Program-made: the position numbers and the translations under genes | Shown here: piece after piece, positions 25,598-46,728 of the stretch | Numbering within the stretch: the first letter of the stretch is position 1 | Layout of the letters: every line of letters starts with the position of its first letter | Origin: Candidatus Saccharimonadota bacterium | Lineage (GTDB): Bacteria; Patescibacteriota; Saccharimonadia; UBA4664 | DNA length: 64,000 bases | NCBI GenBank assembly: GCA_019352195.1 | Contig: JACAFG010000003.1 | Span: 64,956 to 128,955, forward strand | Reading direction: 5' to 3' | Notes under the pieces: model-generated | Database searches by the model: none | What the model was told of the DNA's origin: nothing | The model's input: the letters and a program-made list of their open reading frames with translations, nothing else

Positions 25598-25608
25598 GTC
25601 TCCCCTCC

Positions 25609-32086: not shown

Positions 32087-32157
32087 AGACTTAATTGCTG
32101 GTGCCCTTAAACGACATCCCTTCGAACAGCTAGTTGATTGGATCGATGTGATCGGAC

Positions 32158-32541
32158 TTAGCTTTGAATCGAATGGGAGTTTAGCCAGTTCGAAATTTCT
32201 TTAACATCGATATGTTTGGTAGCGATTTCGACTGCATAATTTTCAATCTCACCTGCTGTTGCCCGAAATTCAAGCTCGTTAAGTCGAAGTAAGGTTAAAC
32301 CTGCAAGTATGGCCGTACGCTTATTACCATCGACAAATGGATGATCGGCGATAATCCCCCGAATAATGGCAGCAGATTTATCAGTAATATTAGCGTATAG
32401 CTCCTCACCGAAGACGTTTTGGGTTTGCGTAGCAACCGCCGACTCCAGCCTACCAAGGTCGCGCAAACCCGAAGCGCCGCCAGTTTCGGCTAGCACAAGT
32501 GCGTGGATCTCAAGCAAATGCTCGAGCGAAAGCACAATCAT
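32158..32541 (-). CDS. doc: Doc (Fic-family) toxin
   Basis: Fic motif HPFVDGNKRTA. 127 aa. Confidence 0.9.
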   Translation of the reverse strand: MIVLSLEHLLEIHALVLAETGGASGLRDLGRLESAVATQTQNVFGEELYANITDKSAAIIRGIIADHPFVDGNKRTAILAGLTLLRLNELEFRATAGEIENYAVEIATKHIDVKEISNWLNSHSIQS

Positions 32542-32759
32542 CGCTGAGAGAGATTATCAAAATCCTGCTTGTAGTCGTTCAAGATGCCACGAGCAGTAGC
32601 AATGACTTTCTGGTCATCACTGTTAGGAGAGTGGACAGGGCGGACGATTACTTCAACTTCGTCACCAATCGCAATATTCTGACGCTTTAGGTCTTTGGCA
32701 GGAATAGTGACGCCCCCGCTTGAACCGATTTTGATAATTTTTTGGATGCTTTGAATCAT
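32538..32759 (-). CDS. phd: Phd/AbrB-type antitoxin (SpoVT/AbrB swapped-hairpin N-terminus)
   Basis: 73 aa. MIQSIQKIIKIGSSGGVTIPAKDLKRQNI is an AbrB/MazE-like fold signature. Overlaps doc by 4 nt. Confidence 0.8.
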   Translation of the reverse strand: MIQSIQKIIKIGSSGGVTIPAKDLKRQNIAIGDEVEVIVRPVHSPNSDDQKVIATARGILNDYKQDFDNLSQR

Positions 32760-32764
32760 AGAAA

Positions 32765-32794
32765 TATTATAACGTTGTTATAATACTATGTCTA
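32765..32794 (-). promoter_or_regulatory. phd-doc promoter/operator: inverted repeat TATTATAAC-GTT-GTTATAATA overlapping -10 TATAAT; -35 TAGACA
   Basis: Inverted repeat at 32765-32785. The -10 sits 7 nt from the ATG, which implies a leaderless or very short-leader mRNA. Confidence 0.45.
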
Positions 32795-32968
32795 GACCTA
32801 TTTAGTGTGATCTGGATGAGACACATTCAATCAAAGACTATATAAGCCCTCCGTGGAGGTCTTATATTAGAATAATTGTTATTCAATTGTCTTAAATGAT
32901 GCTCTTGAACGACACCTGTTCAAACCCTTAGTTGCGTGGCTCGACCGAATAAGGATCTACTGGGTGAA

Positions 32969-33307
32969 TTAGCCGCTTACTAAACTTTCAATTAGTCCTT
33001 GCGTTTTAGATATGACATTATCGCTGGCCCTCTCCTCATACGCTGGTTTTCGAGCTCGCCAATCAACATTTTTGATCTGATCGGCAAGAACAGCTCCCTC
33101 CATTTTTTTGGACTTGACGCGGACTTCGAATGGATAGCCTTTGATCTTAGACGTTATCGGGCAGGCCAACATCATACCTGAGCGTTCGTTGTAATTTCGC
33201 GACGAAATCACCAGTGCAGGACGCGTGCCAGCCTGTTCGTGGCCAATCTGGGGGCTAAAATCAAACCACACAATGTCCCCGCGGGCGGGGACGTAGTCCG
33301 CTACCAT
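32969..33307 (-). CDS. mazF: MazF/PemK-family endoribonuclease toxin
   Basis: 112 aa. Start MVADYVPARGDIVWFDF...PALVIS matches the PemK/MazF N-terminal signature. Confidence 0.85.
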   Translation of the reverse strand: MVADYVPARGDIVWFDFSPQIGHEQAGTRPALVISSRNYNERSGMMLACPITSKIKGYPFEVRVKSKKMEGAVLADQIKNVDWRARKPAYEERASDNVISKTQGLIESLVSG

Positions 33308-33549
33308 ATTTCATTCCCGACAGGAGCGCCCCAGTCCATTTCGCCGTGAATGTTTTCAGGGGTGATGCCCTTCACTAAGTCGTCCAATGATAACCTGGGC
33401 TGCTCGTCGCGTTTGATGGTAGCCGTCGTGCCGTCGCTGGTAATTTCGACCTGACAATCACTGGATAGGCCGAGATCCCGCGCTACACGTGAGGGAATAC
33501 GGATAGCCAGACTATTGCCCCACATTTTGACTTGGGTGGTAGTTTTCAT
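33301..33549 (-). CDS. mazE: MazE/PemI-type antitoxin
   Basis: 82 aa. WGNSLAIRIPSRVARDLGL is a SpoVT/AbrB MazE hallmark. Overlaps mazF by 7 nt. Confidence 0.8.
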   Translation of the reverse strand: MKTTTQVKMWGNSLAIRIPSRVARDLGLSSDCQVEITSDGTTATIKRDEQPRLSLDDLVKGITPENIHGEMDWGAPVGNEIW

Positions 33550-33573
33550 TGTTCGGCCCCATTAATGCTTAAA

Positions 33574-33595
33574 TTGTATATCTATGTATATACAA
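33574..33595. promoter_or_regulatory. Operator-like palindrome TTGTATAT-ctatgt-ATATACAA upstream of mazE
   Basis: 8-bp perfect arms, about 25 nt upstream of the mazE start. Confidence 0.4.
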
Positions 33596-33644
33596 TGTCA
33601 ATGCAAAAATGTGGAAAACGTAGTTGATTGGCAGAATATCGAAT

Positions 33645-33680
33645 ATCAAAATAAGCGCTTGGTTAAGCGCTTATTTTGAT
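33645..33680. terminator. Perfect 16-bp-stem hairpin ATCAAAATAAGCGCTT-ggtt-AAGCGCTTATTTTGAT
   Basis: Read directly. A/T-rich ends make it a plausible bidirectional terminator/insulator. Confidence 0.5.
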
Positions 33681-33840
33681 AATTTAATTTTCTAAATTGG
33701 TGCAGCTGAAGATAAAAGTTTTGAACCACATCTTACAGATATGGCTGACTGGTTTATAGATAATCCGGCGACTGATTGGCGGCAACGTTTAAGGGAGGCT
33801 GCCAAAGCGTCGCGTGATATTACATATTCCTACTAAACCA

Positions 33841-33868
33841 CTGGGGCTGTGGTCGGATTTTCGAACCT
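33841..33868. repeat. Direct repeat copy 1 (CTGGGGCTGTGGTCGGATTT + TCGAACCT)
   Basis: 20/20 identical to 34501-34520, with 6 of the next 7-8 positions conserved. Flanks the PD-(D/E)xK gene. Confidence 0.6.
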
Positions 33869-33920
33869 TTGCAGCTCCTCTAGAACGTACAAGTCTAATG
33901 AGGGGAAGAGCCTTGTTAAC

Positions 33921-34466
33921 CTAAGGTGCGTCAGGAAATATATCTTCACTATTGGGCGTAGTGGACGTACTTCGAACTTTTGACGTTGCAGTTTGGTTAA
34001 CTCTTGGTTCAAAATCTTTCAAAATCTGTAGGTATTCTAATTGAAGGGCATCCGGTATTTCTGCGAGCGGCGAAATGTTACCATTTTCAAGTATTATCTT
34101 GGTTATCTCGTCAAAATAAAATCCATCGAGAGTCGCAATAAATAAATATGATGGGTTCCACGAGGCATTCATCTTATTTGCCCGAGCTAGAACGTCGTTT
34201 GTATCTAGCCTCCAACGGTATTTAACCTCGATGAGTCGCACTTCTTTTGTATCTAGATTAATTACTGCAAAGTCGGGCGCAACACGGAGACTTTCAATAA
34301 TGGGGTTGTCATGGTTATAGTATTGACCTACCAATTGGGGGACTACCTTTTCGTACCCAAACTCAATTACAGTGTACCTACCGTTATGGCGAAACATTTG
34401 TGCGAATATTGTTTCAGCTATTCTGCCCTTAACGAGGTTCCTGGTGAAATCTATGTTTTCGCTCAT
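33921..34466 (-). CDS. PD-(D/E)xK nuclease-fold protein (restriction endonuclease-like)
   Basis: Motif ...APDFAVINLDTKEVRLIEVKYR (PD...E-V-K). 181 aa. Confidence 0.6.
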   Translation of the reverse strand: MSENIDFTRNLVKGRIAETIFAQMFRHNGRYTVIEFGYEKVVPQLVGQYYNHDNPIIESLRVAPDFAVINLDTKEVRLIEVKYRWRLDTNDVLARANKMNASWNPSYLFIATLDGFYFDEITKIILENGNISPLAEIPDALQLEYLQILKDFEPRVNQTATSKVRSTSTTPNSEDIFPDAP

Positions 34467-34500
34467 AGCTAAAATTCTAACACGTAGCGTTCATGTTTGG

Positions 34501-34527
34501 CTGGGGCTGTGGTCGGATTTCCGACCT
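34501..34527. repeat. Direct repeat copy 2 (CTGGGGCTGTGGTCGGATTT + CCGACCT); contains hairpin GGTCGG-attt-CCGACC
   Basis: Exactly 660 bp from copy 1. Confidence 0.6.
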
Positions 34528-34572
34528 ATTGAAGCTGTACCAGATTCTCCGTCGGCCAAGAGGGTGGCAACC

Positions 34573-34977
34573 TTATTGTCTCGCTAATTGTTGCTTATCG
34601 AGTTCGGTTTCAATAAATCCCCTATACGGCGGAATGTTGCAGGTTGTAATAATATTCTTTATTTGAAGCGTCGTGAACGGTCGTCCGCCTTGATATTTAT
34701 AGTTAATTAGCTCGATGGTCGGGAATGAAAATCGCGCATCAAGCTCCCGCCCCTCGTGCTGAATATGAAAGTGGCTTCCGTGGTCGTTCGAGTGAACAAC
34801 TATCTTGATTCCATTTCCGAATCTTTTTGAGGCTTCTTTGTTGATTACATTGCCAGTTGGCAGCTCGCGTGTCGTCTCAATCGCATTATTCAAGTGGTCT
34901 AGAAATAATGCCTCAATGTCGAGCTTTGATTGTTCGGGCATATTGCCTCCAATTGTTACAAATCTAGCTCTGGCCAC
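34573..34977 (-). CDS. Hypothetical protein, DUF4160-like (HxxHFH motif)
   Basis: HSNDHGSHFHIQ motif. The likely start is the ATG at 34941 (SD GGAGG), giving 122 aa. Last gene of the XRE-led operon. Confidence 0.5.
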   Translation of the reverse strand: MARARFVTIGGNMPEQSKLDIEALFLDHLNNAIETTRELPTGNVINKEASKRFGNGIKIVVHSNDHGSHFHIQHEGRELDARFSFPTIELINYKYQGGRPFTTLQIKNIITTCNIPPYRGFIETELDKQQLARQ

Positions 34978-35753
34978 AGATGCTTAACGTCGCGCTTATA
35001 TTGGTCGATAGCTATTCTTGTTTTTTGCATTTGTGCAGATGCAGAGAGCTTAACAGATAGTAGCTCGCTTGTTGTGCTTACTTGCGCATAAGCCTTATGA
35101 AATAGAAGTTGTGCTTCTATCAAAATACCTAAAGTGCCAGCAGTCATCTGATGGTTGGGTTGATTAAAGATGTTTAGCGTAACGCCCGTGTCCGTGCTAC
35201 TGAAATTACCTCGTAAAAACCCTGCGCTCTGATGCGAACCATATTCATTCAGCCCATCTTTTAGCCGCTTAATTTCGTCGCTCAAGTCAGCATCATATTC
35301 ATTAAGAATCTTCACGGCCATTTCTTTTAGCTTTTCATCGTTTTTATTAGTTTTCCGGCTCTTGTCGTTAAATAACGCATACATGGGCGCTGGTGAGCAG
35401 AGGATGCTTAAGGATATAGTAAAATTCTCCACCGCAAATCGAAGCTGAGATAGTGCCTGTGCGTAGTGCTTCCTCATTACGGATGTAATAACCAAGTATC
35501 CAGCCTCATCAGCTTGAGCCTTGTAGGCTATGCTTAGTTGAGCCATAGCCTTTAGATTCTCGAAATAATTGGGAGTGAAGATGGATTGCCACGCTTCGAT
35601 AGACAAATCAAGTATTGGCTTTTCGTGCTTGTAACTTTCGGAAAGCAATCCATGCTCATTATCAATAAGTTGGCGAAAATCTTTATCCATGTGACTGCTC
35701 TCCACTCCCAAGAAGCATTGGGGGGTGCAACTCAGGGTATATTGCGTAAACAT
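34956..35753 (-). CDS. Hypothetical protein (~244-265 aa)
   Basis: Tightly packed between neighbours. The likely start is the internal Met (MDKDF...) at 35690. No motif recognised. Confidence 0.5.
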   Translation of the reverse strand: MFTQYTLSCTPQCFLGVESSHMDKDFRQLIDNEHGLLSESYKHEKPILDLSIEAWQSIFTPNYFENLKAMAQLSIAYKAQADEAGYLVITSVMRKHYAQALSQLRFAVENFTISLSILCSPAPMYALFNDKSRKTNKNDEKLKEMAVKILNEYDADLSDEIKRLKDGLNEYGSHQSAGFLRGNFSSTDTGVTLNIFNQPNHQMTAGTLGILIEAQLLFHKAYAQVSTTSELLSVKLSASAQMQKTRIAIDQYKRDVKHLWPELDL

Positions 35754-37140
35754 CGTGCAGAATCCATTTCGTCAGCCTTGTCGCATCGAGTAATACATCA
35801 GCGTATGACCGCTCCCCCTCGACATTGGGTAGCAGGTGGAACCGATGCAAAGGGTTTGTGCAGACCATGAACACCTCTCTTCGAATCGCGCCCCATTGGC
35901 CGTGGGTGTAGTGTGACGGCCAGTCATAAAATGTATCGTAAATATCTTTCTCGTCGGCCTTTATCGCTCTATCGCGTAAGTTTGCGTCTTCCCAGTCCCC
36001 TAAGTTGATGCTATTAAATTCCATCCATCTGTCCTCATTGGCTTGCAGAAAAATATCGTCAATATCGACGAAAGTGAATTGTACGCCCGTATTCATCAGT
36101 TTTAGTAAAACTTTCTTTGCCTCGCCGGTTCCGTGGTTTCTGAATGATGCCCAGACTTCCTCTGGTGCGGAACGTAAATATGAGATATTGATGCTCACCT
36201 CAGTTAAGGTACGCAGCGCAAGACGGCCGAGAATGCCGGTGCGCGAGGCTTCATTATCGAGCAATTCATCCAGAATTTTAACCGCAAATAAGCCGGTTCC
36301 TACCGCAATATCAAGTTTTATGTCTTTCTTGTAGCTGCCAATGATATTACGTAGGAGAAACAGCTTTCGTCGTTCATGGCGGATGAAATCAGCCGTATCC
36401 TGAGTAGTGAAGCGTTCTTCATGAGGCGCTCCATAGTCATTTACAAAGCATTCTGTTGATTCAAAGCATCCCTCCCAAAAACTATCAGCCCAGTCGGAAT
36501 GTTGTACCCCCATATCGAACGCTATTTCCATAGAACGAATTGAGGGGCGGGTTTTACGCATATCCGCCACATCTGGATAGTCCAGAATGTCGTAGGGTGT
36601 TGAGCTGCGATGAATGAACGTTATTTTGTTGCTAATCATACCTATGTAGCACTTCGCCCATCGGCAGTCCGTTGCCTCTTGGGATTGATGGTCTAGTGTC
36701 TTGTGAATAGTTAGGCCAAGAGCCTCTCCGTCTGCCTGGTAATCGGGTTCTTCGTTAATGGCGGCTTTCCAGAGGTTATATTGAGGTAAATCTTCGAATA
36801 ATAATAACGGGCGTAGTGCGATGCGATGCTCGCGCGTAGAGCAAATGAAGTTGATTATACGTTCTGCCTTATCGTGCTCAATAGAGCCGAGATTTGTTAG
36901 CTCGATTGAGTTAATTCCCTGATACTCAAATTCATTGAGAATCGGTTTCAATACGTCCGTAAACGTTTGAAGCGCGTAAATGTTTCGTAGTAACGCCACC
37001 CATAAGACTTCGGGCAACGCCCTATCAAACCATGAGCGGTTGGTGAACGGGATTTCCGCGAATGAGCCAACAAGTTTATTTCGCTTCTTTTTTTGCTTGT
37101 TGAGCGGCGTAAAATTCAGATGCTTATAGCGGTCATTCAT
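35683..37140 (-). CDS. Hypothetical 485-aa protein with a Rossmann/MTase motif-I-like segment (KLDIAVGTGLFAV) but no motif IV
   Basis: Begins 10 nt after the XRE stop. No other family signal. Confidence 0.55.
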   Translation of the reverse strand: MNDRYKHLNFTPLNKQKKKRNKLVGSFAEIPFTNRSWFDRALPEVLWVALLRNIYALQTFTDVLKPILNEFEYQGINSIELTNLGSIEHDKAERIINFICSTREHRIALRPLLLFEDLPQYNLWKAAINEEPDYQADGEALGLTIHKTLDHQSQEATDCRWAKCYIGMISNKITFIHRSSTPYDILDYPDVADMRKTRPSIRSMEIAFDMGVQHSDWADSFWEGCFESTECFVNDYGAPHEERFTTQDTADFIRHERRKLFLLRNIIGSYKKDIKLDIAVGTGLFAVKILDELLDNEASRTGILGRLALRTLTEVSINISYLRSAPEEVWASFRNHGTGEAKKVLLKLMNTGVQFTFVDIDDIFLQANEDRWMEFNSINLGDWEDANLRDRAIKADEKDIYDTFYDWPSHYTHGQWGAIRREVFMVCTNPLHRFHLLPNVEGERSYADVLLDATRLTKWILHDVYAIYPELHPPMLLGSGEQSHG

Positions 37141-37149
37141 TTGTACATT

Positions 37150-37449
37150 TTACCCCTTAATGCGATACGGTGAGGCATGGGATGATTTTAGTGATACCAG
37201 CTCTGCAATCGGCACTCGCAGCTTTTGGCAAAGTGCCAAAACCTCGCGCAGCGTAATCTCTGGGTTCTCTCCCCTTTCAATTGCGTATAGCTTCTCAACT
37301 GATATGAATAAGCGCCTGGCAAGCTCCGCAGGTTCCCATTTTTGCTCAATTCTGGCGCGTTTGACCCTGCGCCCCAAATCAACTATCTCTGGATAATATG
37401 CCATTTCGGTTCCCCCTAATCCGCAGAGTATACCGAACATAGACCGCAC
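37150..37449 (-). CDS. XRE-family HTH transcriptional regulator
   Basis: HTH ...AELARRLFISVEKLYAIERGENPEITLREVLALCQKL. The likely start is MAYYPE at 37404 (SD AGGGGGAA). Confidence 0.75.
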   Translation of the reverse strand: MRSMFGILCGLGGTEMAYYPEIVDLGRRVKRARIEQKWEPAELARRLFISVEKLYAIERGENPEITLREVLALCQKLRVPIAELVSLKSSHASPYRIKG

Positions 37450-37532
37450 GAGTAAATAGAGATTTCGAGCGGCGGATGTCCGCCCGTAGGTTTAAACGGG
37501 TATAATGTCTTGATAACGAATGACGAATGTAA

Positions 37533-38417
37533 ATGGCGACCAAGTTTAAGACATTGAAGCTGTACGGCGACGTACTGCTAGACCCTGAGGATAGCGCCTC
37601 TCTCGAAAAGCTGCTTGCCTGGGGTTTTGTGGCCGACGGTGATTCGCTGATTCTCCCTGACGACCTGGCGGGAGCTTATTTAAACGGCGCTGGAACCAAA
37701 TTGCCACTCAATCTCAAGCACTGGCCACAGCGGCAAAAGCGTGGCTTCGAGGATGAATCAGGGCAGCCACAGGACTTTATCTTGCTTACCTACCCAGAAT
37801 CAATTGGCATACTTGAGAACGGGCATGACCTCGAATACTCACCGCGATATTATTCACACTACCCGCTTGAGGCTAGCGATAGAGTCTATCAAGCCGTGGC
37901 CGATGCCAAAATCGACACCCTAAGCGAATGGATTAACTTCCCTTTCAAACTAGACTATGTGCTTGAAAGGCCGTCCGAAGAGCATTTTGTATATGAGGCT
38001 GGAATTGTTCAGCACTTCAAGAACCAGCAGCGCCAGCTTATTAAGGATTTAGCATTCTTAGCCTCTGATGATGGTGACTACGAAATGAAACGGGCGCTCG
38101 TTAATCAACGAAAAAATGCTATCCGTCATACAGACCCTGATAGTCACGTTACGGGGAGAGATGAGCGCGGTAGGCCAGACGAGGAAGAATTATACGTTGC
38201 TGATTGGCGAGGAGTGCTTTTCTACGAGCTTGATTTACTTATCGCGAAAGTGAGCCGTATATCTGTCTGTCAGACCTGTAGGGGGCGCATCGACTTAAAG
38301 CCAAATGAGTGGAGAACTCAGCACACAAAAGATGAAAGCCCATCGTGCTTTAAAGCTTATGATGCGCAAAAGGCGCGAACCTATCGCAAAAATAAATCCC
38401 GAAAAACCATCACCTAA
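37533..38417 (+). CDS. Hypothetical protein (294 aa), C-terminal CxxC (CQTCRGR)
   Basis: Divergent from the XRE gene. TATAAT at 37502-37507 lies upstream. Confidence 0.5.
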   Translation: MATKFKTLKLYGDVLLDPEDSASLEKLLAWGFVADGDSLILPDDLAGAYLNGAGTKLPLNLKHWPQRQKRGFEDESGQPQDFILLTYPESIGILENGHDLEYSPRYYSHYPLEASDRVYQAVADAKIDTLSEWINFPFKLDYVLERPSEEHFVYEAGIVQHFKNQQRQLIKDLAFLASDDGDYEMKRALVNQRKNAIRHTDPDSHVTGRDERGRPDEEELYVADWRGVLFYELDLLIAKVSRISVCQTCRGRIDLKPNEWRTQHTKDESPSCFKAYDAQKARTYRKNKSRKTIT

Positions 38418-38597
38418 ACCGTCACGAAAACCATAGCGTACCTCTAGAAAGCTACGATTATGGTATGGGTATTCAGTCAACCAAATTCGCTACTGGATTA
38501 ACGCCGCTTCGCAAACGGTGTACTTTTGTTTGCCCTCCTTAAGGCTAAAACAACCCACACATTTACCCCACTTCAACATAAACCATAGGAGAATGCC

Positions 38598-39791: not shown

Positions 39792-39909
39792 AGCCTGAAA
39801 AAAACTACGGTTCGTCTAATGATTCAGGATTACGGCAAGGAGTCACAATATTATAAGCGTAAGCCCTTATCAACCCATTTAAATAACTATTTAACTGCAA
39901 ATAACACCA

Positions 39910-39980: not shown

Positions 39981-39989
39981 AAAGGTTTT

Positions 39990-40199
39990 GTGACGGGAGA
40001 AATGATAGTGAACCAGCAGTATTTAACAATCGAAGAAGTGGCAGAAATGCTGCGTGTTAAAAGCACTACGGTGACTGCCTGGTGTAGGGCAGGAAAGCTG
40101 ACGGCATTCAAGCAGCCTGGGGGGAAACGCTGGCTAGTCAACGCTAAAGAACTCAGTGCCATGCAAAAGCAGCAGACAAAGAGCCACGGCAATGCTTAA
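39990..40199 (+). CDS. xis: Excisionase/MerR-like HTH DNA-binding protein
   Basis: LTIEEVAEMLRVKSTTVTAWCRAGKL is an excisionase-family HTH. GTG start after AAAGG. Confidence 0.7.
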   Translation: MTGEMIVNQQYLTIEEVAEMLRVKSTTVTAWCRAGKLTAFKQPGGKRWLVNAKELSAMQKQQTKSHGNA

Positions 40200-41058: not shown

Positions 41059-41328
41059 CTATAAATTGTTGAATAGCTCTTCGACCTTGATGCCCAGCGC
41101 CTTAGCTAGTCGGTACATCGTCGTAACAGTTGGCCTACGTAAGCCAGTTTCAATGTTTGCAATTGCTACGCGGTCAACACCTGCAGTATCGGCAAGCCGC
41201 TCTTGAGTTAAGCCTTTTTCGCGCCGCAAATCAGCTAGCCGCTTGGCTACGCTATTCAGAAAGGCTTTTTCATCTTGGTGTTCCATTGCCCAAGCATAGG
41301 AATAACCCAGATAGGTGGACATAATCAT
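41059..41328 (-). CDS. XRE-family HTH regulator
   Basis: KGLTQERLADTAGVDRVAIANIETG is a canonical XRE HTH. Confidence 0.8.
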   Translation of the reverse strand: MIMSTYLGYSYAWAMEHQDEKAFLNSVAKRLADLRREKGLTQERLADTAGVDRVAIANIETGLRRPTVTTMYRLAKALGIKVEELFNNL

Positions 41329-41393
41329 TTGATTACAGAGCCATTATCGTGTTCTAATGTGTGTAATCAAATGATTAAGGAGTTTTAACACCC

Positions 41394-41906
41394 GTGAAGA
41401 AGTGTTCCTCATGCCAAACCGAAATAGATGACAAGGCTAAGAAATGCCCAAACTGTAAATCTGACCAGCGCAATTGGTTCATGAAGCACAAAATCATGTC
41501 GACAATTCTCGTTCTCATCGTAATTGGCGTTATTGCCAGCGCGGCTGGTGGTTCCAAGAAAGCCGCAACAAGTGGCACGGGCGGTACAGCACAGCCGCAG
41601 ACGGCAACAGTTGTTGACGTAAAAGCATTCGGTGACGAATTTGATGCTAACCAGGTCGCCGCTGAGAACAAGTACAAGAACAAGCTCGTACAGTTCACCG
41701 CTCCTATTTCGAACATCACAGATACGGGCCTTTCGTTTCAGAACGTAACCTCAAAAGAGTTTTCGACCACTCAAATTAGCTGCAACATCAGCGACAAGAA
41801 CTCGGTTCTTTCACTAAAGAACGGCGAGAGTGCAACCGTAAAAGGCACGGTGACAGGCCAAACCATTGGCGTTATCGAACTCAACGATTGCTCTATCGTT
41901 AAATAG
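41394..41906 (+). CDS. Zinc-ribbon (CxxC...CxxC) membrane-anchored protein with an extracytoplasmic domain
   Basis: N-terminal CSSCQTEIDDKAKKCPNC, a TM helix, then a ~100-aa domain. Confidence 0.55.
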   Translation: MKKCSSCQTEIDDKAKKCPNCKSDQRNWFMKHKIMSTILVLIVIGVIASAAGGSKKAATSGTGGTAQPQTATVVDVKAFGDEFDANQVAAENKYKNKLVQFTAPISNITDTGLSFQNVTSKEFSTTQISCNISDKNSVLSLKNGESATVKGTVTGQTIGVIELNDCSIVK

Positions 41907-41951
41907 CATAATCAACCAGCAGCATCGGACGTTTAGAAAGGGGATGAAATT

Positions 41952-42446
41952 GTGGCATTAACGAAGCGACAATACATTTTTACTGCTTGTGCAGTCGCCA
42001 TACTTGCGTTTGCTGGCTTAGCCTTTAGCGGTCATATACCGTCCTCGCCTTTGCGTACTAGCTATAGCCTCGACAATCCCGCTGCGTCTGGTCCAGATTC
42101 ACGTGCATTCACGGCTAGCGTAACTAGCCCTACACCAAGTCCGTCTGCTAGCATTGACCAAACCGCACCAGCTCCCGCAGGAGGCATTCTAGGTGCTAAA
42201 ACGACTCCGAGTAACCCTAACGCTTCGGGCTTACAAGCTGGAAGCGTAATTGTGCCTAACCCAACCCCAACTCCAGCGCCGACACCAGCACCCACCAGCT
42301 ACACTCGTGAAGAGTTTAAGAACACGAACCCACCTCAGGGGGTTTATTATCTCTGTGGCGACACCTATCAAACGACGACCTGCGACCCTGGCTTGCAGCT
42401 CGTCCCCAGTAACCCTGACCCTAATGACACCACAGTTCAGAAGTAG
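41952..42446 (+). CDS. Secreted/anchored Pro/Thr/Ser-rich low-complexity protein
   Basis: GTG start. Signal-anchor followed by PTPTPAPTPAPT repeats. Confidence 0.45.
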   Translation: MALTKRQYIFTACAVAILAFAGLAFSGHIPSSPLRTSYSLDNPAASGPDSRAFTASVTSPTPSPSASIDQTAPAPAGGILGAKTTPSNPNASGLQAGSVIVPNPTPTPAPTPAPTSYTREEFKNTNPPQGVYYLCGDTYQTTTCDPGLQLVPSNPDPNDTTVQK

Positions 42447-42643
42447 GCACGTCCAAGCGGGACAATAAAGTAATATAGGCCCACCGGCCTTGCTTTCCAT
42501 CACAGCCCACTCCCGCCAACTAACCTATAGCTTATAGGGTCACAAACAAAAACGCCTACCCCGAAAAAACTAGGTAGCATTTTTCGAAAAGAGCAAAAAA
42601 TTTTCCCGCATTTTTTTTGAAATTCTACGCAGGTCGAACCTGT

Positions 42644-43567
42644 TTAAATAGCGAGGTCGAGCGGTAGGTCGCTAATATCTTTTAGGCGCTTACCCTCAAC
42701 CATGATATTCATTAGCTCAATTGAATCTTCGTTTCCAAGCGACTTGACCGCTTCCATCAACTCATAGAGAGCAAAGTGATAAACGCAATCAATATCGCCA
42801 GTACCCAGAGCTAGGGATGAAAGCCGACTAGGCAGCGGTTCGCCGGTAACGACCATGATATGCGGCAAATTGCCTTTGCGGTTGCGGATTAGATTTAACG
42901 CCTCAGACCGGCTATTCTGCGCTCTATCCGAACGCATTGTCCATTTGGCAGAAATCGAAGCGTGAAGCAGAGCCTCACCGCCGTTGCTCTTTCGTAAATC
43001 TGCCCTCAATGAAACAGAATCATCAACTAATTTTTCGTCGCTATTTATTTCTTCATCGGTTACCAGCTCGCGGGATATAACAATGTCGGGTGTAATTGTG
43101 TAGTCGCGTCCAAGGGCAACTGCTAAATCGGGATTGGTCATAGCCGCCTCTTTGAGGGCGATTAAATGCTTGTACTGCTCAAAACCCGCAATACCCTTAA
43201 CGCTCTTGTTGCCTATTTTTGAGATGGTAAATTCGCCTGGCCGTAGGCTGCCAAGGTGATGGAACGTAGCCTTTACAAAACTCGCGACAATTTCTTCAAA
43301 TTGACTACCACTTGTTTGCCCTGCAAGCTTCTCGTGTGTTTCAGACACAAGAAATTTAGCAATGTGTCCCGCGATTGCGATACTAGCCCCGTTTCCTTTG
43401 TCAGCATTTGAGGCAACCCCGTTCTCATCTATCGACAGGATTGTTTCAAGCAGCCGAGCGTGAAAGTTTTTCCGCTCACGAGCAATTAACACTTGCTCGT
43501 CTATGTTAGTCATTGGGACTTTGGGTATTTTCGGCATATTCTCGTCAGGTACTAAAGCGTCAGACAT
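42644..43567 (-). CDS. Type II restriction endonuclease (partner of the upstream m5C methyltransferase)
   Basis: Overlaps the methyltransferase stop by 8 nt. 307 aa with a PD...E-x-K-like segment. Family not assignable. Confidence 0.6.
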   Translation of the reverse strand: MSDALVPDENMPKIPKVPMTNIDEQVLIARERKNFHARLLETILSIDENGVASNADKGNGASIAIAGHIAKFLVSETHEKLAGQTSGSQFEEIVASFVKATFHHLGSLRPGEFTISKIGNKSVKGIAGFEQYKHLIALKEAAMTNPDLAVALGRDYTITPDIVISRELVTDEEINSDEKLVDDSVSLRADLRKSNGGEALLHASISAKWTMRSDRAQNSRSEALNLIRNRKGNLPHIMVVTGEPLPSRLSSLALGTGDIDCVYHFALYELMEAVKSLGNEDSIELMNIMVEGKRLKDISDLPLDLAI

Positions 43568-44555
43568 TACTTACTTCCTTTACTGTATTTAGTTTAACTG
43601 CACTAGCATCTTCCGACGCGTAGATAGCATCGGCAATCGCTTCTCCAACCGCTCGCGCAACTGGCGGCGGGAAAGCATTACCAATCTGGCGATAGGCGGC
43701 AGTTTTGCGACCTGCGAACAGCCATTCGTCAGGAAAGCCCTGAACACGAGCAGCCATCCGAACTGTAAGCTTCGGCAGCCCCTCATGGCCGATTCCTGGA
43801 ATGTCATCACTAATTCCCTTGCCGTTAACGCCCAACAACTCCCAAGCTGCTTTAGCTCGTGTAGGGCCGAGGTCAGGGCCGCCATGCTTTTTACTTCCGC
43901 CAACCAATGTAGGCGCAACTTTGTTAGCGAGCAAACGCCATTCGTCGGCTTTCTCCCAACCTTGGCTTGCCATCAAATCATGCAATGCCTCGCCTACCGT
44001 AACTTGCTTCGAATTGCCTATCGGCCATACAAAATACGGGAATATTTCTTTTTTTAGTGCCACCAATATAGCGCGGGGGCGAAGCTGCGGAACCCCAAAA
44101 TCTGAGGCGTTTAAAAGCTTCCACTCGCCCTGGTAGCCCATCTCATCAAGCTTATCGAGAATCTCTTTTCGATAGTCTATGAATCCTTTCGACATAAGCC
44201 CTTTGACGTTTTCGAGTAATACGGCACGAGGGTTTAATTCAGATACGAGGCGTAGGGCTGAGGGGAATAAATCTCTTTCGTCATCTGCGCCGAGCTGTTT
44301 TCCTGCAACAGAAAAGGGAGGGCATGGAACGCCGCCAGCAAACAAATCTACTCCCTCATATCCTTTGCCAGACATCTTTTTAACATCTGCAACAACAACA
44401 TTCCATTCCGGTCTGTTGAGAAGCAATGTTTCGCAGAATTGTGGCTCAATCTCGGCAACTAAAGTATGCTCGAAACCCGCAAGCTCCAAGCCTAGTGCTT
44501 GGCCGCCAGCCCCTGCACAAATCTCGATAGATGTTAATTTCTTCCTCTTTGCCAT
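43560..44555 (-). CDS. DNA (cytosine-5)-methyltransferase
   Basis: Motif I (CAGAGG), PC motif GGVPCPPFS, ENV motif LLENVKG. Confidence 0.9.
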   Translation of the reverse strand: MAKRKKLTSIEICAGAGGQALGLELAGFEHTLVAEIEPQFCETLLLNRPEWNVVVADVKKMSGKGYEGVDLFAGGVPCPPFSVAGKQLGADDERDLFPSALRLVSELNPRAVLLENVKGLMSKGFIDYRKEILDKLDEMGYQGEWKLLNASDFGVPQLRPRAILVALKKEIFPYFVWPIGNSKQVTVGEALHDLMASQGWEKADEWRLLANKVAPTLVGGSKKHGGPDLGPTRAKAAWELLGVNGKGISDDIPGIGHEGLPKLTVRMAARVQGFPDEWLFAGRKTAAYRQIGNAFPPPVARAVGEAIADAIYASEDASAVKLNTVKEVSNV

Positions 44556-44870
44556 ACTCCCCTTGCCTTTCGTTCGATTATACAGAGCATCTATCAGATA
44601 TGAAATGCCTATGCTTATGTTCGGTATGTGTACGGTATACTATACCACTCGCGCAACAATTGCGAGTCAGTTCAATGACTGATGCCGAGGTTGCCCTCAA
44701 TCTCTATTCTGAGCCATTTAGGGCCTACTAGAGGGCTTCTAAGCGGGTGGGCGATACTTTACCGGTTGACGGCACAACGAGGCTGTGTGACAGCTCTACA
44801 CACATTGCACGTTTCAGGCCGTCACTGATAGCGTCACCAAACTCAAAAGTGGGCCTACGGCCGGTAGGCT

Positions 44871-45080
44871 GTGATTATGTCGAGCCAAGTAACATTACCT
44901 AAAGAGAACGCCCCCAAGCTCAATCCAGTTATTGAGCTTGCTCGTCAAGCCGACATGGACGAGGCGGCTATTTGGGATGATTTTATTGAACTTCTGAAAT
45001 CTATTGATGCGGAGACTCCGCTGGCAAAACTGAACGAATCCACAATTATTGACAGAGACGGTGAGCGTATCGAGCTGTAG
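44871..45080 (+). CDS. Small hypothetical protein (69 aa), possibly a recombination directionality factor/regulator
   Basis: Position immediately upstream of the serine recombinase only. Confidence 0.3.
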   Translation: MIMSSQVTLPKENAPKLNPVIELARQADMDEAAIWDDFIELLKSIDAETPLAKLNESTIIDRDGERIEL

Positions 45081-45106
45081 GTTGGTTTAAGTGTTAAAAT
45101 TTTACC

Positions 45107-46696
45107 ATGTTAAGCCAAGAACCAGTAGACCTTACAAAACTTCGTTATGTACTTTATGCCCGTAAATCGACGGATGATAATAACCGCCAGGTTCGGTCTG
45201 TTCCCGACCAAATTAGAGATTGCCAGAAACTGGCAGATAGCATGGGGCTACGGGTTGTTAATATTATCCGAGAGAAAAAATCGGCTAAAAAGCCCAAAGA
45301 ACGAACCGAATTTACGCAGATGCTGCGTGACCTAGAAGCAAAGAAGTACGATGGGATTTTGTGCTGGCATCCAGACCGACTATGCCGCAATATGCTCGAA
45401 GGCGGCGAAATCATCAATATGCTTGATGAGGGGGTAATCAAGGATATTAGGTTTCATAGTCATCAATTTAGCAACGATGCCAATGGCAAGATGCTACTCG
45501 GTATGTTATTCGTCTTCTCGAAACAATATTCCGACGACCTTTCAGCAAAGGTAAGCCGAGGGGTTCAGGGCAACTTTGTTGAGGGTAAATCATCAGGAAC
45601 ACCAAAATGGGGCTACGACCGCGAAGATACCACAGGGCTTTACGAGCCGAACGATTCATTTGATTTGATTACTGAGGCTTGGAAAAGACGTGCGAGCGGC
45701 CAGACGCTTCAGCAAATTTTAGATTTTCTCCTTGAGAGCGGCTATCAACGAGTAACTAAAGATAAGCGCCACCGCATTATCAAGCCAAATATTAACGCGC
45801 TGAGCATACTGTTTCGTGACCCGTTCTATTATGGGAAGTTAATCCAGGCAAATCAGGAAGTTGACCTGCGTGAAATATATAACTTTGAAGCGATGATAGA
45901 TGAGGCGACTTTTAACGCTGTGCAGGTGATTGGTTATGGCAGGACGCAAGATGTCCACCCCAAGAAACGAGCGACTTTCTATCCGCTACATCGCTTTGTT
46001 TATTGTGCCATCTGCAATGACCCTAAGCCTATGTCTGTTGGGAAGAATAGAAATGGCAGCGGTCAGCACGTTCTGTCGTATCGTTGCGATAACCCTACCT
46101 GCACTCGCAAGCCCAAATCTATGAGGGCGAAAAATATCTTCAGCTCAATATATGTGATGTTAGAACGGTTTGAGCTGTCAGACGATGCCTACGACCGCTA
46201 CAGCCGCAGTATAGATAGTATGACCGACTCAAAGCTCGTGCGGCTCAAGCAGGACATACTGAGCCGTAGAGGAGCCTTAACGCACATCAAGAGCGAGCTT
46301 AGTGAACGAGCTTTGAAAATCGGACTAATTGATACCGACTCACCCACCTATAAAATTAACGAGAAACGTGTGAACGAGCTTGCCTTGCAACAGGGGGAGC
46401 TTGAAGATGCGATTAGCAGGATTCAAGAAAAGATTGTCGACCCCCAACGAATCAAGCTAGGCAAAGTTGAGTTTTTGAACTTGGTAAAAAACGCCTCTGC
46501 CAAGCTTAAAGCTGGGTCTGCCGTCGAGAAAGACGCACTATGCCGAATTTTGTTCTTGAACGTACGAGTTGATAGCGAAAAAGTGGTCGATTATATCTGG
46601 AGGGAGCCTTTTGCTAGTCTCGTAAAAGTAGTTGAATTATCAATTGGTGCGGATGATAGGAATCGAACCTACACGTCTTGCGACACCAGTACCTAA
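45107..46696 (+). CDS. Large serine recombinase (integrase)
   Basis: N-terminal resolvase catalytic motif YARKSTDD...R. 529 aa. The 3' end overlaps the tRNA-Leu 3' half by about 50 nt. Confidence 0.88.
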   Translation: MLSQEPVDLTKLRYVLYARKSTDDNNRQVRSVPDQIRDCQKLADSMGLRVVNIIREKKSAKKPKERTEFTQMLRDLEAKKYDGILCWHPDRLCRNMLEGGEIINMLDEGVIKDIRFHSHQFSNDANGKMLLGMLFVFSKQYSDDLSAKVSRGVQGNFVEGKSSGTPKWGYDREDTTGLYEPNDSFDLITEAWKRRASGQTLQQILDFLLESGYQRVTKDKRHRIIKPNINALSILFRDPFYYGKLIQANQEVDLREIYNFEAMIDEATFNAVQVIGYGRTQDVHPKKRATFYPLHRFVYCAICNDPKPMSVGKNRNGSGQHVLSYRCDNPTCTRKPKSMRAKNIFSSIYVMLERFELSDDAYDRYSRSIDSMTDSKLVRLKQDILSRRGALTHIKSELSERALKIGLIDTDSPTYKINEKRVNELALQQGELEDAISRIQEKIVDPQRIKLGKVEFLNLVKNASAKLKAGSAVEKDALCRILFLNVRVDSEKVVDYIWREPFASLVKVVELSIGADDRNRTYTSCDTST

Positions 46697-46728
46697 AACT
46701 GGCGTGTCTACCATTTCACCACATCCGC
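46645..46728 (-). tRNA. tRNA-Leu (anticodon TAG), type II with long variable arm, CCA encoded
   Basis: Manual fold: GCGGATG acceptor, GTGGTGAAATGGTAGACAC D-arm, anticodon loop TTTAGGT, variable hairpin GTC-GCAA-GAC, T-loop TTCGATT. Confidence 0.8.

Follow-up and report, generated by a model that had tools for sequence, protein, structure and literature searches.

How an island that encodes two kinds of site-specific recombinase, one serine and one tyrosine, came to lie against tRNA-Leu(TAG) in this Saccharimonadota genome, and which of the two enzymes placed it there, is the question raised by this locus. We analyzed it within the window, the whole stretch of 64,000 nucleotides. An earlier note, made from the letters alone, had described an integrative element at the tRNA gene with the serine recombinase as its integrase, beginning at 32090 and low in GC. 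These observations were confirmed, the start lying within 9 nt of the outer junction at 32099 and the GC content being 0.43-0.52 (around 45%) for 32-47 kb against 0.54-0.60 in both flanks; the interpretation was supported in part.

The explanation that we consider very probable as a whole is that 32099-46650 (14.5 kb) represents two insertions in tandem at the very 3' end of tRNA-Leu(TAG), made through site-specific recombination by a large serine recombinase (LSR). The inner element, E2 (33698-46650, 12,947 bp), is a plasmid-like integrative element that carries the LSR, and the outer one, E1 (32099-33697, 1,599 bp), contains Doc/Phd and MazEF and no integrase. The composite structure suggested previously was thus retained with another partner, E1 taking the place of the tyrosine-integrase module.

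Junctions of the island and the empty locus

The sole repeat that bounds the island is the 6-mer TGGTGC, present at 32099, 33698 and 46645 (see table). No longer repeat of the tRNA was found in the window, the best blastn match being 14 nt at 7957, which is at chance level and agrees with the earlier failure to find a second tRNA 3' end by eye. For serine integrases a short crossover core is enough and an extended att repeat is not needed. No second tRNA copy was found because the serine-integrase repeat is 6 bp only, and the lack of an att-like repeat, which the earlier note would have held against the island, is not applicable here. In most of 24 site pairs, the block of identity between attL and attR likewise ran from +1 to +6. 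Of 51 related loci, 21 have the arrangement core6-N16-YTYGAAC upstream of the LSR and none has it on the opposite strand; within the window it occurs twice (32099 and 33698), with no copy on the other strand. No left end was found in 30 of the 51 loci within the 10 kb fetched per locus.

Comparison with related genomes, a check that the earlier note had proposed, showed the locus without an island. In L083, RecG, a 271-aa protein, RsmD, tRNA-Leu(TAG) and a methyltransferase follow one another in the same order as in the window, and the flank proteins are 70-82% identical. Host sequence (GCAATTA) picks up exactly at 32098, and the flank ...TTAATTGC that adjoins TGGTGC matches the native sequence 3' of the tRNA in the empty L083 (GCACCA directly followed by GCAATTA) and in L009. 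An attB rebuilt from the window aligned with L083 at 79 of 92 nt over the junction, through CACCAGCAATTA. Two more empty RsmD/tRNA-Leu(TAG) sites (L094 and L095) share with the window the last 28 nt of the tRNA, from the T arm to the CCA end (GTAGGTTCGATTCCTATCATCCGCACCA). By these alignments, the three empty loci support the view that the island is real and mobile. The 24-mer across the attB junction had no exact match in the JGI metagenomes, and neither an excised form nor an empty site of the exact window strain was found.

Features of the island and its junctions, in order of position in the window
Feature	Position	Strand	Remarks
Outer left core TGGTGC, putative attL of E1	32099-32104		core+N16+YTYGAAC fits; host DNA to left
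Putative decayed LSR-tail/P' arm relic, E1 type	32100-32204	+	GALKRHPFEQLVDWIDVIG...
Doc (Fic/DOC) toxin	32158-32541	-	Pfam Fic, E 7e-17
MazE/AbrB-type antitoxin	32538-32759	-	Pfam MazE_antitoxin, E 8e-7
MazF/PemK toxin	32969-33307	-	Pfam PemK_toxin, E 8e-26
MazE antitoxin	33301-33549	-	Pfam MazE, E 6e-7
Inner left core TGGTGC, putative attL of E2	33698-33703		core+N16+YTYGAAC fits
Detached C-terminal tail of LSR	33699-33836	+	45 codons (GAAEDKSFEPHLTDMADWFIDNPATDWRQRLREAAKASRDITYSY, stop); also predicted P' arm of attP
Relic copy 1, 3' end of a different serine recombinase	33841-33876	+	WLGLWSDFR...
Cargo block	33921-37404	-	181-aa, 134-aa and 265-aa proteins, function unassigned, with the DUF5677 and HTH regulator genes
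Relic copy 2, 3' end of L088-type recombinase	34501-34587	+	...WLGLWSDFRPIEAVPDSPSAKRVATLLSR, stop
DUF5677/'DitA'-like protein	35683-37140	-	Pfam DUF5677, E 1e-17; PADLOC DitA, E 2e-66
HTH regulator	37150-37404	-	HTH_31, E 4e-10
u294, conserved first gene of module	37533-38417	+	294 aa, no known family
Rep, rolling-circle-type initiator	38598-39791	+	Phage_CRI/gpII N-terminal domain (PF05144)
Phased A-rich iterons between rep and xis	39911-39977	+	ATAAAC x4 plus TAAAAC, 10-bp register
Xis-like HTH_17 excisionase-type protein	40008-40199	+	Pfam HTH_17, E 2e-14; gene call in L001
Tyrosine recombinase, Xer/integrase-like	40156/40192-41058	+	288-300 aa; Phage_integrase, E 4e-36
HTH_3 regulator	41059-41328	-	
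Zinc-ribbon/tRNA_anti-like membrane protein	41394-41906	+	
Pro/Thr-rich protein	41952-42446	+	164 aa
NgoMIV-family endonuclease	42644-43567	-	Pfam, E 1e-121; PADLOC REase_II
C5 cytosine methyltransferase	43560-44555	-	Pfam, E 2e-67; PADLOC MTase_II
Small conserved ORF directly upstream of LSR	44877-45080	+	C-terminal motif ...AKLNExSIxDxxGxRIxL
LSR, integrated tail-less form	45107-46696	+	529 aa; Pfam; last 16 codons are antisense tRNA
Right core TGGTGC, putative attR	46645-46650		antisense of CCA end, discriminator and 2 nt of acceptor stem
tRNA-Leu(TAG), intact	46645-46728	-	ARAGORN and Rfam; body is host DNA

A recombinase gene divided at its own putative attachment site

As read previously and now seen with ARAGORN, Rfam and Pfam, the LSR open reading frame ends within the 3' half of the tRNA gene, overlapping it by 52 nt, and its TAA stop overlaps the complement of the anticodon. 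The protein matches Resolvase (E 2e-22) and, just above the cut-off, Recombinase (E 2.7e-4), and four of its cysteines are invariant. A structural model of a 56%-identical long-form homologue (pLDDT 80) contains a catalytic domain, a recombinase domain, a zinc ribbon and a coiled coil, and matches the SPbeta, Bxb1, PhiC31 and LI integrases (E 5e-16 to 2e-7); its tail portion is of low confidence. Nearly all of the 120 LSR homologues listed end in antisense-tRNA peptides (terminating in ...SGADERT or ...GGGGWT), and of the 69 genome loci for which the sequence is long enough, 59 have a minus-strand tRNA abutting the end of the LSR. The tRNAs used by these relatives are those for Leu, Pro, Met, Val, Ser, Ala and Gln, and the related elements measure 3-10 kb. 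Tandem arrays are also seen at other loci. In L003, a fusion at TGGTCG joins LSR1 to the tail of another element, which has its own LSR ending in tRNA-Pro.

The missing end of the protein was found at the other side of E2. Directly after the inner left core lies an intact reading frame whose homologues include the tails at 21 attL sites, the 45-aa frames after attL cores being homologous to one another, and the C-termini of long-form LSRs. It is 42% identical to the tail of P0084 (E 4e-11 in a blastp against six C-terminal fragments only, a value that is indicative and not of database-wide significance). Joining 46650 to 33704 yields an ORF of 558 aa, and long-form LSRs of 559-563 aa, with attP intact and no tRNA, are encoded by L091 (9.35 kb) and L093 (5.2 kb), metagenomic contigs for which 30-nt (k-1) terminal overlaps, the sole basis for this reading, indicate circles. 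Differences among tails fall on the three codon positions as 133/82/293, and the L019 and L029 tails differ at 12 synonymous and 0 non-synonymous codons; by these counts the tails are under purifying selection. In 31 of 45 loci, the LSR is preceded at a distance of 17-80 nt by a homologue of the small ORF that lies before it in the window. This ORF has no Pfam family match and is a likely candidate for a directionality factor or accessory protein.

E1 has a conserved site at its left end only. The relic there shares DNA and peptide homology with one site in L009 (1480) and with three in L084, each of which bounds a single toxin-antitoxin cassette, and homologues of the MazF/MazE pair are found at the same position in L009 (65% and 82% amino-acid identity). 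The left end of E1 appears to be an older, decayed copy of a left-end site of the E2 kind.

Cargo, the tyrosine recombinase module and rival explanations

The cargo of the island is defensive or addictive: the NgoMIV endonuclease and the C5 methyltransferase form a type II restriction-modification pair, accompanied by the DitA-like protein and the toxin-antitoxin pairs. Near the left end of E2, relic copy 1 recurs in direct orientation at 34501-34536 (86% identity), and both relics match the 3' end of the serine recombinase (LSR') on the circular L088.

The tyrosine recombinase belongs to a u294-Rep-Xis-Int module that is conserved in L086, L087, L088 and L090. In L086 and L088, Rep is likewise preceded by a u294 homologue (28-29% identity, E 1e-31). 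Rep itself matches Phage_CRI weakly (E 7.6e-5) and has only 5 relatives among 5.8 billion proteins; the three of these with an inspected contig that continues beyond the 3' end of rep (L086/L087, L088, L090) all have a Xis-like ORF and the tyrosine recombinase after it. As the earlier note had observed, phased repeats precede the xis and integrase genes: ATAAAC is exact at 39911, 39941, 39951 and 39961, three of the four copies being at exact 10-bp spacing, with TAAAAC at 39971, and L086, L088 and L090 have comparable A-rich repeats with a 10-bp period at this position. The HTH_17 frame overlaps the start of the tyrosine recombinase, which has an N-terminal SAM-like domain (SAM_1, E 2e-9) and, as read from the translation, the R...HxxR...H...Y motifs, and is 77% identical to its L086/L087 homologue. 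We interpret its presence inside an LSR element as module-level mosaicism or cointegrate ancestry.

The note's alternative, two independent elements, nested or in tandem, that each used their own enzyme for integration, seems improbable to us. None of the other 80 LSR loci has the module, and it occurs without a tRNA-type LSR on L086, L087 and L090; its recombinase gene has a higher GC content than its neighbours and intact catalytic motifs, and the relics of a different recombinase lie close by. However, it has no recognisable ends as a separately integrated island: the longest word shared by its flanks is 10 nt, at chance level (shuffle mean 9.6, maximum 13), no tRNA-like fragment is found within the island, and the 12.95-kb E2 has LSR-type sites at both ends. 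Moreover, the circular L088 (12.9 kb) combines the module with a different serine recombinase on one replicon, a pairing that is thus a one-element design seen repeatedly or else an ancient fusion. A classical tRNA island made by the tyrosine integrase, with the serine recombinase as a resolvase, invertase or cargo, is scarcely credible and already contradicted. Most tRNA-linked islands do use tyrosine integrases (PMC10484663), and Xis-like and Int genes are present, but 5.6 kb separate the tyrosine recombinase from the tRNA, the duplicated part of the tRNA 3' end does not exceed 6 nt, the left ends bear the LSR's own tail, and it is the LSR gene that spans the junction, as in the 59 of 69 relatives, which have no tyrosine recombinase.

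It is also rather unlikely that the island is a fixed remnant of a past LSR integration, with the tRNA overlap and the tail being only historical. E1 is clearly decayed, the recombinase relics record past rearrangements, and the window strain yielded no excised or empty form; yet the LSR and its tail, the small ORF before the LSR and the two E2 cores have all stayed intact, and the purifying selection on tails across the family requires the elements to pass regularly through an excised phase. Temperate phages are the typical bearers of serine integrases, and Rep has a filamentous-phage gpII domain. Nevertheless, a prophage or phage satellite is very improbable here, as Pfam scans revealed no genes for capsid, tail or terminase proteins and none resembling Zot, IMG/VR contains no relatives of the LSR, of Rep or of the tyrosine recombinase, and the related elements are only 3-10 kb long.

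A model of integration and excision

Under the LSR-made tandem insertion, we infer that attP lies inside the 3' end of the element's own LSR gene. It would comprise a P arm formed by approximately the last 15 codons of the conserved LSR body, the 6-nt core and a P' arm formed by the first codons of the 45-aa tail; the predicted sequence is ...GTTGAATTATCAAT TGGTGC AGCTGAAGATAAAAGTTTTGAAC..., and no clean inverted symmetry of the P arm with P' was found. The tRNA 3' end, with the same core, would serve as attB, its acceptor and T arm providing the B' arm and the terminator region downstream of the tRNA the B arm. The B arm is non-conserved, which is unusual for serine integrases because both half-sites are normally read. 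The distance between YTYGAAC and the core is 16 nt in P' and 11 nt in the tRNA, whose T loop corresponds to this motif in antisense. The difference equals the 5-bp offset between attP and attB that Rutherford et al. (2013; PMC3783163) described for the motif bound by the zinc-ribbon domain of serine integrases. The near-universal T loop is probably that motif, which would explain the range of tRNAs used by the LSR's relatives.

Strand exchange inside the core would leave the tRNA intact, cut the LSR frame so that it runs antisense into the tRNA, and place the tail-coding segment at the far end of the element, while excision would rejoin body and tail into the 558-aa enzyme. The excised circle would probably be maintained through rolling-circle replication by the Rep-Xis-tyrosine recombinase module, in which the tyrosine recombinase may resolve multimers or offer an alternative route of integration. 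The design, in which an integrase gene appears to be cut by its own insertion, is unusual, and it recurs at many tRNA genes in ultra-small 'CPR' bacteria.

Boundaries of the island at tRNA-Leu(TAG)

The large serine recombinase (LSR) of the island has a Resolvase and a Recombinase domain. As the earlier note had described, its ORF ends within the 3' half of the minus-strand tRNA-Leu(TAG) gene; the overlap comprises the last 52 nt of the ORF. The fall in GC content over the island was also borne out, with values of 0.43-0.52 across 32-47 kb against 0.54-0.60 outside it. A second copy of the tRNA 3' end had been sought by eye without success, and neither blastn (word size 7) nor a repeat search retrieved an extended copy in the window. 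A 14-mer tRNA match at 7957 was considered as an att repeat and rejected, being at chance level and also implausible, as an element bounded by it would enclose core genes and two tRNAs. The earlier note would have counted the absence of any att-like direct repeat against an integrative element; the lack of a long one does not have that force, being the expected signature of a serine integrase, whose core is short (here 6 nt, TGGTGC).

To define the far end of such elements, we used a pattern derived from three examples, in which a tRNA-specific 6-mer core is followed by 16 nt and then by YTYGAAC. Within the window the pattern has two plus-strand matches, at 32099 and 33698, and no minus-strand match. 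The inner site (33698) is canonical, reading TGGTGC AGCTGAAGATAAAAGT TTTGAAC and running on into the intact ORF GAAEDKSFEPHLTDMADWFIDNPATDWRQRLREAAKASRDITYSY, closed by a stop codon. The outer site (32099) is a decayed variant with the tail GALKRHPFEQLVDWIDVIG..., and directly to its left lies host DNA (...TTAATTGC). The outer site as the sole left end of one 14.5-kb element was a reading that we dropped when the pattern scan gave the second, canonical site; the island (14,546 bp) is instead a tandem of an integrase-less toxin-antitoxin cassette (E1) and an LSR element (E2). The composite integrative element with a serine integrase at a tRNA, as first suggested, was thus upheld, but the tyrosine integrase module, which had suggested a second integrated element at the time, is internal backbone, and the tandem partner is E1. 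Excision of E2 would yield a circle with the predicted attP junction GTTGAATTATCAATTGGTGCAGCTGAAGATAAAAG and leave the predicted site TTAATTTTCTAAATTGGTGCGGATGATAGGAATCG behind; the fully empty attB is predicted to read GACTTAATTGCTGGTGCGGATGATAGGAATCG, and a circle of E1 plus E2 would carry the junction GAATTATCAATTGGTGCCCTTAAACGACATCC.

The empty-site comparison that had been called for was obtained through a protein search and contig look-ups, which retrieved three island-free RsmD/tRNA-Leu(TAG) loci. In the first of these (L083, on a contig of 1.09 Mb), RecG, a 271-aa protein, RsmD and a methyltransferase are syntenic with the window and 70-82% identical; GCAATTA... comes immediately after the tRNA-Leu(TAG) gene, and the methyltransferase gene is reached 40 nt further on. 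When the attB rebuilt from the window was aligned to this locus, the match ran straight through the junction. In L094 and L095, the other two, the last 28 nt of the tRNA (T-arm through CCA end) do not differ from those of the window, so the tRNA body in the window is host rather than element sequence. A scan of metagenomes with the RsmD protein gave a single locus (28% identical), and a 24-mer across the predicted attB junction had 0 matches in the JGI metagenomes. We place high confidence in the boundaries of the island and in the LSR mechanism.

Two smaller features were observed near the left junctions. The methyltransferase gene is separated from the outer junction by some 650 bp of host-like GC content, ending in a hairpin terminator; L083 lacks this stretch, which gave no match in Pfam or Rfam. 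A perfect 17-nt inverted repeat (TATCAAAATAAGCGCTT / AAGCGCTTATTTTGATA) separates the mazE start from the inner att core and is probably a mazEF operator or terminator.

Features of the island and of other regions, with their positions in the window
Feature	Position	Strand	Size	Remarks
E1, toxin-antitoxin cassette	32099-33697		1,599 bp	Doc/Phd and MazEF
E2, LSR element	33698-46650		12,947 bp	
E2 cargo				NgoMIV-family endonuclease and C5 methyltransferase
E2 cargo				DUF5677 protein matching PADLOC 'DitA'
E2 cargo				HTH regulators; two small membrane or secreted proteins; three proteins of unknown function
tRNA-Leu(TAG)	46645-46728	-		
LSR	45107-46696	+	529 aa	
Small ORF upstream of LSR	44877-45080		67 aa	
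Excisionase-type ORF	40008-40199			HTH_17
Tyrosine recombinase	40192-41058			
Motifs upstream of xis	39911, 39941, 39951, 39961			ATAAAC
Motif upstream of xis	39971			TAAAAC
Copies of a serine recombinase gene 3' end	33841-33876; 34501-34587			direct copies
Inverted repeat	33644-33681			
Host-like stretch	31445-32085			
Hairpin terminator	32058-32086			
Gene run	23756-28859	-		
tRNA-Asp(GTC) and tRNA-Arg(GCG)	17292-17528	-		
Most GC-rich stretch	18000-22000			GC 0.60-0.62

A serine recombinase family at tRNA 3' ends

The best 120 homologues of the LSR share 53-88% identity with it, have a length of about 520 aa and in most cases bear the label Saccharimonadales. Their C-termini are nearly all peptides such as ...SGADERT, ...SGRGDRT or ...GGGGWT. 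Such a peptide arises when TGG, the discriminator, the acceptor stem and the T stem are translated in antisense; the stop codon is provided by the T loop (ACTTGAACC). We fetched 80 genomic loci across CPR bacteria (Saccharimonadia, Woesebacteria, Gracilibacteria, Nomurabacteria, Absconditabacterales and others), and a minus-strand tRNA was found to abut the LSR end in 59 of the 69 with enough downstream sequence. These tRNAs were Met(CAT) in 23 cases, Pro and Leu in 15 each, Val and Ser in two each, and Ala and Gln in one each. The overlap between LSR and tRNA is usually 22 nt; it reaches 52 nt in the window only because the T loop of that tRNA (AATCGAA) has no stop codon.

The catalytic domain of the LSR (residues 15-160) matches Pfam Resolvase with an E-value of 2e-22 and includes the serine nucleophile. 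This residue, S21 in YARKST, is kept in at least 90% of 26 aligned homologues, R19 is also nearly invariant, and four cysteines are invariant in the alignment. The match to Pfam Recombinase has an E-value of 2.7e-4 and a score of 21.6 bits (cut-off 21.1), and the PDB sequence match is confined to the catalytic domain (TP901-1 integrase, E about 1e-5 to 2e-5). An AlphaFold model was built for P0084, a long-form homologue 56% identical to the window LSR (60-sequence alignment, pLDDT 80). It comprises a catalytic domain, a recombinase domain, a zinc ribbon with a long coiled coil (helices 365-450) and a small C-terminal subdomain, and includes beta-hairpins; residues 520-528, which the att core encodes, are disordered, and the C-terminal tail forms two short helices at low confidence. 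Foldseek searches with this model retrieved full-length SPbeta complexes and the Bxb1, PhiC31 and LI integrases (E 5e-16 to 2e-7). By its domains, its short att sites and the placement of its outer att motif, the window element passes as one that would work as a serine-integrase element.

A small ORF lies upstream of the LSR in the window and shares the family motif LVELxExLxxIDxxxPxAKLNExSISDNNGGRIxL, which ends at the stop codon. In 31 of 45 loci a homologue of it was found 17-80 nt ahead of the LSR gene, and Pfam searches assigned it to no known family. It is a candidate accessory or directionality factor.

The att sites of the family have a common layout. Among 24 pairs of attL and attR, the block of identity is often exactly 6 nt (TGGNNN), as it is in the window, which places the crossover within the CCA, the discriminator and 2 nt beyond. 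The distance from the core to YTYGAAC is 16 nt in the P' arms (21 loci and the window) and 11 nt in the B' arms provided by the tRNA, where the motif is the antisense of the T loop and the first T-stem base. From the structure of LI integrase on attP, it has been derived that the zinc-ribbon-domain motif lies 5 bp further inward in attB than in attP (positions 11-19 versus 16-24; Rutherford et al., PMC3783163). The two placements of YTYGAAC would represent this same shift, and we infer the matching of LSR protein domains to the DNA motifs. Conservation is lacking in the B arms, the terminator regions beyond the tRNAs; the P arm has a conserved TGAAWT 13-8 nt before the core, and a comparison of the P and P' arms gave no clean inverted symmetry. 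Of 51 integrated loci, 21 have the far-end pattern itself upstream of the LSR on its own strand and none has it on the opposite strand; the element sizes that it implies are 3.1-10.4 kb.

The ORFs that continue from the attL cores encode clearly homologous peptides of 45 aa (for example, GAPEDRCLEPLESISDWLLSSPDVDWNLQLRNASLSRFVPQYQL). Differences among these tails are distributed over the three codon positions as 133/82/293, and the tails of L019 and L029, two of the comparison loci, differ by 12 synonymous and 0 non-synonymous codons, while the DNA flanking the tails on either side is unalignable. As judged from these substitutions, the tails evolve like coding sequence. In the integrated element the tail is thus coded at the end away from the LSR; only after excision would it be translatable as part of the enzyme.

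Some homologues, a minority, reach about 560 aa and are found without a tRNA; they part from the short forms just after the codons that match the first 6-9 nt of the tRNA end. Two of these long forms are on contigs of 9.35 kb (L091) and 5.2 kb (L093) with terminal overlaps of 30 nt, which in k=31 assemblies indicate circles. In the window, joining 46650 to 33704 produces an LSR ORF of 558 aa, and the tail at the inner site is 42% identical to that of P0084 in its circular form. Long forms on chromosomes were considered to be simply excised forms, an explanation that we dropped because tandem insertion also yields them. This is seen in L003, a chromosomal tandem in which LSR1 is fused at TGGTCG to a tail and, 1.7 kb further on, a second small ORF is followed by LSR2 ending in tRNA-Pro; the fusion places an attP-like site in the chromosome. 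The upstream LSR of this tandem (L003 10001-15061) is 567 aa long and is fused to the tail of the downstream element of 3.3 kb.

Plasmid-like backbone and toxin-antitoxin cassettes

The xis and tyrosine integrase genes with phased repeats that the earlier note had read to the left of the LSR are indeed present. The start of the tyrosine recombinase (Pfam Phage_integrase, E 4e-36) is overlapped by the excisionase-type ORF, and its translation includes GLRRGE, HSLRHSF and GHRSPATTSRYVH, which supply the R, HxxR, H/W and Y residues. Of the four exact ATAAAC motifs upstream of xis, three follow one another at a spacing of 10 bp. All copies of the module keep phased iterons at this position, between rep and xis, and these could be binding sites for Rep or for Xis/Int. 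Rep has a Phage_CRI domain (E 7.6e-5) and only five relatives among 5.8 billion proteins. The order u294-like protein, (DUF5659), Rep, HTH_17, tyrosine recombinase holds in all three relatives whose contigs were looked up and run on beyond Rep, and the order rep-xis-int is kept in four contigs besides that of the window (L086, L087, L088 and L090). HTH_17 and the tyrosine recombinase are in the source annotation of L086/L087 and L088; in L090, Rep and the tyrosine recombinase are annotated, and an unannotated HTH_17 homologue was found between them by tblastn. The tyrosine recombinases of L086 and L087 are 77% identical to that of the window, and an opposite-strand HTH regulator follows the recombinase in these two only.

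L088 is a circle of 12.9 kb, as indicated by its terminal overlap of 127 nt, and it also carries a 545-aa serine recombinase of another family. The 3' end of that recombinase gene (...WLGLWSDFRTIDYVPNEGQHARIRTLLSV and the stop codon; L088 2440-2532) is recognisable twice in the window, in copies that are 86% identical and flank a 181-aa ORF. On the circular contig the gene is intact, and its sequence TGGTCGGATTTCCGAAC resembles a tRNA-Pro 3' end; there are hints here that the L088-type family also keeps an att site in the 3' end of its gene.

In the window, no repeat around the module rose above chance, as judged by the longest shared word, and no attP or tRNA-like segment was found adjoining int, the only candidate sites being the iterons upstream of xis. 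The module is absent from the other 80 LSR loci. We conclude that E2 is a mosaic, in which a plasmid-like backbone of the L088 kind received a tRNA-targeting LSR that replaced the original serine recombinase, or was added to it and then replaced it. The tyrosine recombinase may serve either in multimer resolution of a replicating circle or as a second route of integration. Pfam scans of the island ORFs gave no virion structural or packaging genes, so that the island is not classed as a prophage, and the LSR family, Rep and the tyrosine recombinase have no relatives in IMG/VR. The island is a small defence and addiction island on an integrative plasmid-like element.

The outer site belongs to a family of sites conserved at the DNA level, five of which were found in three genomes, bounding toxin-antitoxin cassettes: that of the window, one in L009 (1480) and three in L084 (11954, 12995 and 13750, minus-strand sense). 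The cassettes start with a nearly identical site of about 55 nt (TGGTGCCCTTGAACGACATTCATTTGAAC...), and the P'-like end is the only conserved end of each. In L009, the counterpart of the window locus on the chromosome of a more distant genome, the E1-type site is followed by MazFE, a canonical attL and an LSR element. In L084 the three sites separate single cassettes (an AAA_33 gene, HicB-PIN and RelB-YafQ) directly downstream of tRNA-Leu(TAG), with no LSR or integrase within 10 kb. E1-type units would be either relics of successive elements, with surviving addictive toxin-antitoxin genes, or integrase-less cassettes moved in trans. The L084-type array looks integron- or CIME-like and is built from serine-integrase P'-arm relics.

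Two other regions of the window were also inspected. The minus-strand gene run to the left of the island encodes large membrane or Pro-rich proteins (613, 357, 152 and 560 aa), and has a marked AT-skew spike at 26-27 kb. Given that the equivalent region of L083, downstream of the methyltransferase, encodes AAA_10 (VirB4-like) and CbiA-type ATPases, this run may be a secretion or DNA-uptake cluster. The tRNA-Asp and tRNA-Arg genes lie beside the most GC-rich stretch of the window, and no att-type pattern was found around either.

Relation to known systems and significance

The LSR shares its domain order with the PhiC31, Bxb1, A118/LI and SPbeta integrases (catalytic domain, recombinase domain, zinc ribbon with an inserted coiled coil). 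Minimal att identity, a motif 5 bp nearer the centre in attB and an integrase gene beside attP are likewise common to the family and the phage-type serine integrases, although the window LSR is highly divergent from these in sequence. The family differs from them in targeting tRNA 3' ends rather than protein-coding genes, in having only one conserved attB half-site, in belonging to small, non-viral elements of CPR bacteria, and in holding attP within the integrase ORF, as a result of which the enzyme exists in two lengths. In the literature searched, the natural targets of serine integrases were protein-coding or intergenic sites, and tRNA genes are usually assigned to tyrosine integrases.

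Integrases of the archaeal SSV1 type are tyrosine recombinases that have attP in the ORF and target a tRNA; the gene is split mid-way on integration, and so inactivated, and it overlaps the tRNA by tens of nt. The LSR family shares with them the attP inside the integrase ORF, the tRNA target and the splitting of the gene, but as an analogy rather than by membership, for the LSR is a serine recombinase, loses only a 45-aa tail and has a core of 6 nt. Actinomycete elements of the pSAM2 type have a repSA-xis-int operon, and the module in E2 has the same order and orientation, from a rolling-circle-type Rep through an Xis-like HTH protein to a tyrosine recombinase. In contrast to pSAM2, however, no tRNA-derived attP was found beside int, transfer genes are lacking, and the chromosomal junctions of the island were not made by the module. 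The E1-type units are, like CIME/ICE and integron arrays, small, integrase-less, site-bearing and stacked at one attachment locus, with mostly toxin-antitoxin cargo, whereas their sites are P'-arm relics of a serine integrase, not attC or tyrosine-recombinase att sites, and each unit is conserved at one end only.

Classical tRNA islands of the P4 or lambda-like kind are defined by a tyrosine integrase at the tRNA junction and a duplicated tRNA 3' segment, typically of at least 15 nt; here the tyrosine recombinase is 5.6 kb from the tRNA and the repeat is only 6 nt. A survey of genomic islands states that insertion at tRNAs is dominated by tyrosine integrases (PMC10484663). A parallel among serine integrases comes from the rumA-targeting Streptococcus ICEs, in which one copy of the repeat lies inside the 3' end of the integrase gene, so that integration swaps 3' parts and alters the integrase C-terminus (Ambroset et al., 2016; PMC4701971). 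The LSR family likewise has a repeat in the integrase 3' end and exchanges C-termini. In the ICEs, however, the target rumA is protein-coding and is altered, whereas the LSR target is a tRNA read in antisense and left intact; no conserved detached tail under selection is known to have been described for them, and the type of element and the host clade differ. Full-text searches of the literature, including genomic-island surveys and incomplete in coverage, retrieved no serine-integrase family that systematically targets tRNA 3' ends, no conserved detached tail, no link between the T loop and a 5-bp offset, and no such elements in CPR bacteria. Within this incomplete coverage, we rate the family as a variant of the known serine-integrase kind rather than as categorically new.

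Tentatively, and as a possibility that falls somewhat short of probable, we propose that a CPR-wide LSR family would use the universal tRNA 3' end as attB, the crossover core being the CCA/acceptor end and the zinc-ribbon motif the T loop, and would keep attP in its own reading frame. The 45-aa tail, attached only in the excised circle, would be a physical switch biasing integration versus excision, such that the 558-aa form is predicted to integrate and the 529-aa form, together with the small upstream protein, to excise; the same sites would seed integron-like toxin-antitoxin arrays downstream of tRNA-Leu. The roles of the tail, the small upstream ORF, the tyrosine recombinase and the E1-type cassettes are in each case ones that we infer.

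For the window, a picture of two integrases with unclear boundaries is replaced by boundaries at base-pair resolution, an empty-site control and a mechanism. Insertion of large DNA into genomes relies mainly on serine integrases as tools, and a family that targets tRNAs of at least seven amino-acid identities through a 6-nt core and the T loop would supply related enzymes with differing, predictable specificities. It would also account for such islands being overlooked by finders that depend on duplicated tRNA fragments. The detachable tail, conserved while apart from its gene, offers a testable idea of directionality coupled to integration state, and for CPR bacteria, Saccharibacteria among them, in which manipulation is difficult, the family would provide tools for integration.
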